The notes: generated by a model not told the origin, from the sequence alone. Counted from the stretch's first letter, positions 56,226 to 61,493 are shown. The stretch: 64,000 nt of DNA from Escherichia coli (GCF_003334335.1 NZ_QOWQ01000010.1), one strand, 5' to 3'. Numbers and translations: made by a program.

Positions 56226-56942
56226 TCACAAGTAGACTACGCTTATCACAGCTTTCCCATCAAGTTCGATTTTTTCTGAACCGCCTAAATCATTCGCGAT
56301 AGATGCGCTCACCTGAAGCGGTATAATGGCGTTCGTTACAGGAGTTGGGGTTGTTTCACCTGGTTTTACAAAGGTGTAATAATAGCTTTGATCGACTGCA
56401 AGCGGATAAGCGGTGAGCGTTTGCCATGCTCTTTTTTGCCCTGTTATGACGGCATCTGCACCTGCTATTGATACAGCTAACGTCTGGCTACCATTGCTGG
56501 CACTAATGTTGTTGCTATCAATTAACACGGCATAACTACCGATATTTTTATTATCTTTTGTTTTCCCTAAGCCGAATAAGCGCGTTGTCTGGCTAATATA
56601 ACCTCCGCCATTTAAGGTATATTTTACACCACTCTGACCCCCACTATCTTTTCCGGTGGTCATACTATCCATTCGTGTATCACGAGCGGTAATCGCAATG
56701 CCGGTAGCGGATTCGCAAGTTATAGTCATATTAATATTACGTGTTCCAATCTGTGTGTAGTGCTGCGTTGAAAGTCTATTGACTGAATGACTACCGAAGT
56801 TAACAACTCCGCCGTTGCTTAGTATTGGAGTACAAGCTGCAGCTTCCAGAGTCACCTTAACGTCAATTGATACTCTATCAGCGGCTTGCGCTGACATGGC
56901 AAAAAAGGCACTTCCGGCAATCAGTAATTTTACATTGTTCAT
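56226..56942 (-). CDS. yhcF: DUF1120 family secreted protein (putative fimbrial-like subunit), paralog of GltF
   Basis: 238-aa ORF with signal peptide; shares motifs with gltF product (ACTP..GG.V.FG, NITC, GLG, LDGxAxISVxYL C-terminus). Confidence 0.85.
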   Translation of the reverse strand: MNNVKLLIAGSAFFAMSAQAADRVSIDVKVTLEAAACTPILSNGGVVNFGSHSVNRLSTQHYTQIGTRNINMTITCESATGIAITARDTRMDSMTTGKDSGGQSGVKYTLNGGGYISQTTRLFGLGKTKDNKNIGSYAVLIDSNNISASNGSQTLAVSIAGADAVITGQKRAWQTLTAYPLAVDQSYYYTFVKPGETTPTPVTNAIIPLQVSASIANDLGGSEKIELDGKAVISVVYL

Positions 56943-57490
56943 TTTGCCTCCACCAGGACCGTCAGATTGCCTGTAATATCTGTCATGTCGGTTAGTTCCC
57001 CTTCATCCTTAAAAGCTGGAGCCATTGTCAGTGTGAGGCTAACGCTTTTACCGCTATCAATTACCACTTCTTGACCATTTTGCATAAACACCAGCCAATT
57101 ATTGGGGGAAGTACTAATTGATGCTGTTCCTGTGCTGCCCGGATTGTCATTTTTGCCACTGGCTAACGCCAGGTCGAGATTGTTACTACCTGAAAATGCA
57201 TCGCTGGCGATCAGATTTAATGAACCATTCGGGCCAAATCCAAATCCGTTGTTGGAAATATTAGCGGTATTCAACTGAACACGAATATGAGCGTCCTGAT
57301 CGCATTGCATTACCAGCGTGATTGTTCTGTCTGCTAATTGTGTTGTTTTACCCCGGTCAACTTGGCGCATGGCAGCACTTCGTTTGCCATAGTCGATATT
57401 TTGTATGCTACTGGAGATATTACACTCTGCCTGAGCGGCCATGGCGAAGTTCAGCAGCAGGCATCCTGTTATTATCCGTTTCATTGGCAC
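56939..57490 (-). CDS. yhcE: putative fimbrial-like secreted protein, intact
   Basis: 183-aa ORF with signal peptide MPMKRIITGCLLLNFAMAAQA, contiguous with yhcD and yhcF; no insertion sequence interrupts it. Confidence 0.8.
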   Translation of the reverse strand: MPMKRIITGCLLLNFAMAAQAECNISSSIQNIDYGKRSAAMRQVDRGKTTQLADRTITLVMQCDQDAHIRVQLNTANISNNGFGFGPNGSLNLIASDAFSGSNNLDLALASGKNDNPGSTGTASISTSPNNWLVFMQNGQEVVIDSGKSVSLTLTMAPAFKDEGELTDMTDITGNLTVLVEAK

Positions 57491-60557: not shown

Positions 60558-60728
60558 TTAAATTAAAACTCCTGTAATAATGATAAATAACGCAGAAACA
60601 TATTGTTAATATATGTTATGCACTGTTTGCGATGAGATTGATTAAGACAGACCATGTCATAGGGCATAATCTGTCCGAGTTATAGCTAACTGGTTAATGC
60701 GTAAAAATAAAAACTGTATTACAAGTTC

Positions 60729-61493
60729 TTATAAATACTGAACGCTGATAGTGACGTTACCATCCAGTTTGATCGTTTCATCAGAACCAAGAATAGTATT
60801 GTCATTTACCGCAGCATCAATCAGTAACGGGAAGGTGACCGCTGTAATGGCAACAGGTGTCAGTTCCCCTGTTTTTGCAACAGAATAACCGCGCTCGATT
60901 GCTGAGCAACTTGTCAGCGAGCAGAATGCGCCATTAGATGAGGCTTTCCATGTGGGGGTCGCTGCTGACCAGTGGTCAGTTTGAATCAGGTCGACAGGAA
61001 TTTCACCTGTATCGTCCGCCGCGTGAATCCCACCATTAGACCTGTCAATACCAATGGATGCAGCGCCAATTTTTTGTCCATTAGGCGCAGAACCTAAACC
61101 AAAGGCGTTTTTCGTTCCCTTCATATCTACGAGAGTATCATAAGCTTTTTCAATATAGGATGTGTCGTTTAACGCTACAATGGTCGACTGACGGTTATCC
61201 TTGGAGGTTACAGCAATTAGCGTTGGTGCTGTGCAGGTTATATTTAATGTGCTGTTTTTGCGGCCCAGTTGAACCAGTTTATTACTTTTACCGGTCGGAT
61301 TCAGCGCACTGTTATGATGTTTCCCATAGTCAACAATGCCGCCGCCCGTAACAACTGGGGTACATGCACCAGGGGTATACTCGCCGATGATAGTTAATTC
61401 TGTATCAGTTGAATCTGTTGCCATGGCACTGAATGCTGCAACAGAAAGTGCTGCACAAATAGCAGCTGTTGTGAGGTTCTTTTTGAAAAACAT
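60729..61493 (-). CDS. gltF: DUF1120 family periplasmic protein GltF (fimbrial-subunit-like)
   Basis: 254-aa ORF with signal peptide MFFKKNLTTAAICAALSVAAFSAMA; paralogous to yhcF. Confidence 0.9.
   Translation of the reverse strand: MFFKKNLTTAAICAALSVAAFSAMATDSTDTELTIIGEYTPGACTPVVTGGGIVDYGKHHNSALNPTGKSNKLVQLGRKNSTLNITCTAPTLIAVTSKDNRQSTIVALNDTSYIEKAYDTLVDMKGTKNAFGLGSAPNGQKIGAASIGIDRSNGGIHAADDTGEIPVDLIQTDHWSAATPTWKASSNGAFCSLTSCSAIERGYSVAKTGELTPVAITAVTFPLLIDAAVNDNTILGSDETIKLDGNVTISVQYL

Follow-up and report, generated by a model that had tools for sequence, protein, structure and literature searches.

Gene content and borders of the locus

The analysed window is a stretch of 64,000 nucleotides from Escherichia coli (GCF_003334335.1 NZ_QOWQ01000010.1), and in the part described here the genes are arranged on the minus strand in the order gltB-gltD, gltF, yhcA, yhcD, yhcE and yhcF, beyond which lie yhcG and the nan genes. 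According to the ORF calls, gltF (positions 60729-61493) encodes 254 amino acids, yhcA (59883-60557) 224 amino acids and yhcF (56226-56942) 238 amino acids. For yhcD and yhcE, the RefSeq starts give 57481-59862 and 56939-57484, respectively; the longest ORFs reach a TTG at 59880 in yhcD and span 56939-57490 in yhcE. With the RefSeq starts, yhcD overlaps yhcE and yhcE overlaps yhcF by 4 bp each. The five ORFs are all intact and show coupled stop/start overlaps. The end of gltD is located at 62053, which leaves a gap of 559 bp (GC 0.318) between gltD and gltF, and the gap between gltF and yhcA is 171 bp long (GC 0.304). An initial sequence-only reading of this DNA, made by a model, had given the same coordinates and distances (559 bp and about 170 bp), and these proved to be exact.

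The borders of the region were deduced from the empty site of strain EH53, whose alignment with the window stops at 56170 and resumes at 62051. Between yhcG and gltD lies an accessory islet of 5.88 kb (56171-62050, with no strand assigned) that comprises the complete gltF-yhcADEF module together with the AT-rich leader; the GC content of the islet is 0.431, compared with 0.52-0.56 in the flanks. Borders at approximately 56171 and 62050 imply that the entire AT-rich leader of gltF belongs to the islet; the leader as delimited by the two genes (61494-62052, minus strand, GC 0.318) falls almost wholly within it. The sequence 56000-62100 is 100% identical to that of E. coli strain EC416, and also to that of K-12 except for an IS5 element in the K-12 yhcE.

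The islet is directly flanked by yhcG (54914-56041, minus strand), which encodes a DUF1016/PDDEXK-nuclease-domain protein for which NCBIfam gave no match. In a divergent Escherichia allele of the region (loci L006-L008), yhcG is a 68-aa ORF or is absent, and this flank of the islet is thus variable too.

Distribution and genomic context of gltF

The distribution of the module was determined across 5426 complete genomes of E. coli; all the matches to gltF and to yhcA-yhcD were at least 99% identical. gltF was found in 1143 genomes and yhcA-yhcD in 1140, and the whole 6.1 kb was contiguous in 1121 of the 5426, whereas the end of gltD was present in more than 5000. gltF is missing from approximately 79% of the genomes, nearly all of which keep a match to gltD. 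In cluster-free strains yhcG follows directly after gltD, with 183 bp between them in EH53, and in most of the genomes that lack the cluster gltD abuts yhcG.

The analysis was extended to more distant homologs of the module. The divergent Escherichia allele, whose GltF is 62% identical to that of the window, is located at the same site. In Enterobacter mori (locus L003), the same five-gene order was observed (DUF1120 gene, PapD-like chaperone, usher, a 175-aa protein and a second DUF1120 gene), but the module is inverted, with the yhcF-like end convergent to gltD and the gltF-like gene adjoining sspB. A module whose GltF is 43% identical was located in a further assembly (L009/L010), where nanR and dcuC flank it and gltD is not its neighbour. 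Moreover, a DUF1120 gene is located directly upstream of a PapD-like chaperone gene in L011, L015, L016 and L018. The gltF homolog thus stays directly upstream of the chaperone gene even where the module is inverted or relocated. When the modules were compared with each other, the five-gene architecture, the A/EC start of YhcE and a hairpin downstream of the first gene were found to be kept across modules that are only 29-60% identical, which points to purifying selection on the family.

Judged by its co-occurrence with gltBD and by the conservation of its adjacency and orientation relative to these genes, gltF does not behave as a member of a gltBDF operon. Its gains, losses and relocations coincide with those of yhcADEF and do not follow gltBD. 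The proposal of the sequence-only reading that gltF groups with a chaperone-usher cluster and not with gltBD is therefore borne out by three kinds of evidence that agree with each other, namely joint presence and absence, the islet borders and synteny. As a side observation, the module (L003, 9001-14130; L009, 7001-12251; L011, 1375-6505; window, 56171-62050) occupies at least three positions or orientations in the neighbourhood gltBD...nan...sspAB of different enterobacteria: between gltD and yhcG, between nanR and dcuC, and, inverted, between sspB and gltD.

[quoted passage not shown]

Of the genes between gltF and yhcF, yhcA and yhcD could be assigned with high scores. YhcA matched the fimbria/pilus chaperone model NF007392 with 319.7 bits (cut-off 183), which identifies it as a PapD-like periplasmic chaperone, and its sequence matches in the PDB include Caf1M, DraB, CupB2 and PapD. 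YhcD matched the fimbrial usher model NF011832 with 1272 bits (cut-off 723), which identifies it as an outer-membrane usher; its homologs bear the PapC_N, Usher and PapC_C domains, and it is 100% identical to the YhcD of K-12. Both cut-offs were clearly passed, in agreement with the assignment of yhcA and yhcD that had been made from the sequence. The placing of the YhcD usher in the beta clade is taken from the literature (PMC3032704, PMC5216030). Chaperones of the beta clade have been described as lacking the classical subunit-anchoring residues and as resembling the archaic CsuC type (PMC4654587).

Relationship between GltF and YhcF

GltF and YhcF are 30% identical from end to end (BLASTP, E = 6e-26), which is far beyond chance, and both belong to the Pfam family DUF1120 (PF06551), with E-values of 1.8e-45 and 2.3e-47, respectively. 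Their suggested paralogy is thereby confirmed. The RefSeq name of GltF is "DUF1120 domain-containing protein". The two proteins have in common a signal peptide, a conserved pair of cysteines and a C-terminal strand whose last residues are Tyr-Leu. As regards the shared motifs that had been listed, ACTP..GG, FGLG and the similar C-termini (LDGNVTISVQYL in GltF and LDGKAVISVVYL in YhcF) were found in both proteins, but a literal NITC is present in GltF only, the corresponding sequence of YhcF being TITC. It had also been claimed that the subunits are not canonical FimA-type pilins, and Pfam searches agreed, as the Fimbrial family (PF00419) gave no match for GltF, YhcF or YhcE.

A more distant relationship to pilins was nevertheless detected by profile and structure comparison, the approach that had been suggested for checking this point. 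FimG is matched by the DUF1120 profile, although weakly (E = 3.9e-4), and in this alignment a V-x-I-x-V-x-G strand, with its Gly, and the first Cys are in register. Ahead of the first Cys, both GltF and YhcF have a segment of 16-18 residues in which hydrophobic positions alternate. The N-terminal segment of GltF (TELTIIGEY..C44) aligns to the N-terminal strand of FimG, including the Gly, and is unstructured in the model of the monomer. The AlphaFold models of GltF and YhcE have chaperone-usher pilins as their best structural matches. The module thus encodes at least one secreted subunit with a predicted incomplete Ig-like pilin fold, as is characteristic of a chaperone-usher operon.

From these alignments, we infer that the N-terminal segments of GltF and YhcF may act as donor strands. 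The strand of YhcF (DRVSIDVKVTLEAAAC) is of a different type from that of GltF: x-V-T-L-x-V-x-G-x-x-x-P-x-A-C can be written for GltF, compared with D-R-V-S-I-D-V-K-V-T-L-E-A-A-A-C for YhcF. Such differing strands would be compatible with an ordered assembly. Additionally, between close relatives no protein of the module diverges as much as GltF (62% identity to that of L006, the others being 86, 77, 74 and 67% identical), as would be expected of an exposed major subunit.

One further candidate was discarded during this analysis. A 2199-aa library entry (P0030) matched residues 202-241 of GltF 15 times; it consists of Arg-rich repeats that look like an out-of-frame translation, and the match was considered to be spurious.

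YhcE, a putative divergent subunit

The relationship of YhcE to the other two proteins is much more distant. BLASTP detected no significant similarity of YhcE to GltF or YhcF, and its match to the Pfam DUF1120 family (E = 0.12) is below significance; it was related to DUF1120 only in the profile-profile comparison (hhalign, 97.8%). The assumption that all the subunits are DUF1120 proteins thus holds for GltF and YhcF, does not hold for YhcE at the Pfam level, and finds a link for YhcE at the profile-profile level. YhcE is short, and its AlphaFold model has a pilin fold; it is important to mention that the underlying alignment, composed of neighbours of DUF1120 genes, was padded with DUF1120 sequences, which dominate it and may bias the model toward the DUF1120 fold. 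On this evidence, YhcE appears to be a divergent, shorter member of the DUF1120/pilin superfamily.

The mature YhcE chain begins at E-C and therefore has no N-terminal strand, and the same was observed in every module examined. This makes YhcE a candidate for a tip or initiator subunit, in which both the place at the tip and any binding activity are purely inferred. In the literature its function is given as "unclear" or as "no predictable function". The yhcE gene is uninterrupted in the window, whereas the K-12 copy (records H3 and H4) contains an IS5; uninterrupted copies have also been reported in ETEC and in E. coli C (PMC5216030, PMC6805351).

When genome contigs were scanned with the YhcE alignment, a single locus was found (L014, JAIJJM010000202.1). 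It lies on a 5-kb contig of a MAG labelled Collinsella and carries a yhcE 99% identical to that of E. coli, and it is probably a binning contaminant.

Leader, hairpins and transcription signals

Transcription signals were searched for around gltF and yhcA. A promoter-like site with the sequence TTTACA-16-TATACT is present in the gltF leader (61572-61545, minus strand), and another one is located 22 bp upstream of yhcA (60609-60580). As the numbers of sites in the promoter and terminator scan were at or below those expected from shuffled sequences, both can be considered only as weak hints. A Pap-like phase variation dependent on Dam and Lrp was rejected, since the leader contains a single GATC. 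Two ORFs of the leader (61614-61898, minus strand, 94 aa; 61857-62075, plus strand, 72 aa) had no family match and are unannotated in RefSeq, and are probably chance ORFs in this AT-rich DNA of 28-32% GC. A scan of 55800-62300 against Rfam, with E-values up to 1, detected no RNA family.

Just after the stop codon of gltD there is a strong hairpin with a perfect 10-bp stem (62011-62040, minus strand; -22.6 kcal/mol, z = -4.87). It has no U tract, and read-through from gltBD into gltF is therefore possible. A second hairpin, with a 12-bp stem, lies in the gap between gltF and yhcA (60645-60676, minus strand; z = -3.31), and a hairpin after yhcF was no better than those of shuffled sequences (z = -0.19). 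Hairpins of unrelated sequence also trail the first DUF1120 gene in L003, L006, L009, L015, L016 and L018, several of them being followed by T runs; in L011 the gap between the first subunit gene and the chaperone gene is 30 bp. In known fimbrial operons, a hairpin located after the gene of the major subunit raises the output of this subunit, its role within the single operon being that of a partial terminator or stabiliser. The hairpin at 60645-60676 is a candidate attenuator or stabiliser after a putative major-subunit gene. A genomic SELEX peak of a minor sigma factor has been reported in the gltF-yhcA-yhcD interval (PMC5493296).

The sequences downstream of the gltD stop codon differ between islet-bearing and islet-free strains (62011-62040 in the window compared with L001, the EH53 locus, 2671-2723), and the islet has thus replaced the native 3' end of gltD. 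In EH53, 53 bp separate gltD from the shared sequence on the yhcG side; by eye, they contain a different inverted repeat, rich in GC, behind which the gltD strand is T-rich.

Comparison with described chaperone-usher systems

The membership of gltF in the Yhc beta-class chaperone-usher locus is already known and has been present in the fimbrial literature since 2007. One report describes Yhc as the beta chaperone-usher locus of E. coli, with reference to Nuccio and Bäumler 2007 and to Korea et al. 2010 (PMC5216030). GltF and YhcF are listed as putative subunits of a beta-class operon gltF-yhcADEF (PMC3032704, PMC5216030, PMC8174762, PMC11184843): one entry reads "gltF-yhcF, beta, IS5::yhcE" (PMC3032704), gltF-yhcADEF has been deleted among 12 chaperone-usher operons (PMC8174762), and adhesiomeR handles gltF as a fimbrial gene (PMC11184843). 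IS-free copies of Yhc, together with truncated variants of yhcF, have been described in ETEC, the former in phylogroup A, and the deletion of yhc in an ETEC strain left adherence to Caco-2 cells unchanged (PMC5216030). The locus of the window is the same one, with the same gene order and the same assignment of a chaperone, an usher and two putative subunits, and there is no difference in kind; what distinguishes our description is that yhcE is uninterrupted and that YhcE is placed, on the profile evidence, in the DUF1120/pilin superfamily. A literature search on DUF1120 returned nothing relevant. As the assignment has appeared in reviews and genome papers since 2007, the discovery value is small; the only modestly new elements are the placement of YhcE and the evidence from synteny and from the E. 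coli population.

A related described system is Salmonella Stj, a beta-clade cluster with the usher StjB. GltF and YhcF match the NCBIfam models PRK15302 and PRK15303, YhcE matches PRK15301 and YhcD matches PRK15304, and these four consecutively numbered models presumably represent one Salmonella locus of the same composition. The Yhc subunits score 55-107 bits, compared with equivalog cut-offs of 226-337, and are thus homologs and not orthologs; the chromosomal site is also different. Like Yhc, Stj has been described as devoid of a typical adhesin and of structural or functional data (PMC3373541). According to the same source, no fibre has been seen and no structural data have been reported for the beta clade (PMC3373541).

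With the type 1 and P pili (FimA/FimG/FimH and PapA/PapE), Yhc shares a PapD-like chaperone and an usher, the Ig-like pilin fold (predicted here), an alternating hydrophobic N-terminal strand whose conserved Gly precedes the first Cys by seven residues, the pair of cysteines and a C-terminal strand in which Tyr is the penultimate residue. It differs from them in that its subunits have no PF00419 match, in the absence of a two-domain lectin adhesin, and in the size of mature GltF and YhcF, which at approximately 215-230 aa contain a large insertion compared with pilins of approximately 150 aa. Single-domain tip subunits are known in other systems (DraD/AfaD, the pilin domain of FimH), but YhcE has no sequence similarity to DraD or AfaD.

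Proposed assembly and alternative explanations

Taken together, the region very probably represents a beta-class chaperone-usher fimbrial operon that is intact (gltF-yhcA-yhcD-yhcE-yhcF) and is located on an AT-rich accessory islet of 5.9 kb between gltD and yhcG. In the proposed model, the subunits would be exported by the Sec system, captured by YhcA through donor-strand complementation and polymerised at YhcD through donor-strand exchange. YhcE, being unable to donate a strand, would be the first to enter and would end up at the tip. The main repeating subunit would be GltF, as suggested by its being encoded by the first gene, by the hairpin that follows and by its being the most variable protein of the module, and YhcF would serve as a minor or adaptor subunit. 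A promoter of the operon itself would lie in the AT-rich leader, which probably keeps the operon silenced in the laboratory, and the name gltF would reflect nothing but map position. A more general suggestion, which we put forward tentatively and regard as somewhat less likely to be right than wrong, is that beta-class fibres are not adhesin-less but ordered, with YhcE as a single-domain tip or initiator, YhcF as an adaptor and the variable GltF as a polymerising shaft whose output is boosted by the conserved hairpin after its gene.

The historical view regards gltF as the third gene of a gltBDF operon, whose product acts alongside glutamate synthase in nitrogen-regulated gene expression. Castano et al. 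are said to have proposed this role in 1992, and Goss et al. reportedly found in 2001 that gltF has no nitrogen phenotype. gltF does share the orientation of gltD, some read-through past the gltD hairpin is plausible, and the name "gltBDF operon" persists in many papers (for example PMC8403718). Nevertheless, most genomes with gltD have no gltF, the gene is inserted or deleted jointly with yhcADEF, its homologs, whether inverted with respect to gltD or located elsewhere, always lie beside a PapD-like chaperone gene, GltF has a signal peptide and, in the model, a pilin-like fold, and the AT-rich spacer of 559 bp (32% GC) separates it from gltD. This view of gltF function is thus largely refuted, and we consider it highly improbable. 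It is more conceivable, although still unlikely, that the cluster is a silent and decaying relic, that is, a set of chaperone-usher homologs that makes no structure in E. coli. Such a relic would be in line with the repeated insertions (IS5 in the K-12 yhcE and IS1 in the gltF of strain PEC414, H26, NZ_CM168006.1), with the truncated yhcF variants of ETEC and the yhc deletion without an adherence phenotype (PMC5216030), and with the confinement of the cluster to approximately 21% of genomes. Against it stand the intact and coupled ORFs of the window, the conservation of the islet at 99% identity or more in approximately 1140 genomes (1121 at full length) and the signs of purifying selection on the family as a whole.

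A third possibility retains the functional link but divides the genes into two transcription units, a monocistronic gltF ending at the hairpin at 60645-60676 and a yhcADEF unit with its own promoter. We regard this arrangement as doubtful, though less so than the relic. It would explain the stable hairpin in the 171-bp gap and in most of the homologous modules, several with subsequent T runs, and it could make use of the promoter-like site at 60609-60580; the SELEX peak in the gltF-yhcA-yhcD interval (PMC5493296) would also fit. These promoter-like sites are, however, not above chance, L011 leaves just 30 bp for the gap, and hairpins of this kind are generally known as partial terminators or stabilisers within a single fimbrial operon. 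A single gltF-yhcADEF operon encoding a fimbria is therefore the reading that we prefer. Regulon and operon databases in which gltF is grouped with gltBD will be misleading, and "gltBDF operon" is still widely written. Moreover, the beta clade is the sole classical chaperone-usher clade without an observed fibre, for which an IS-free copy such as that of the window is the right starting material, and the proposal of YhcE as a strand-less tip subunit offers a concrete, testable order of assembly.

Finally, an IS5 element has been reported in the gltF-yhcA gap of laboratory-evolved clones (PMC8403718). The islet can thus be described as a repeated target of insertion sequences, which have been found in yhcE (IS5, K-12), in gltF (IS1, PEC414) and in the gap between gltF and yhcA (IS5).
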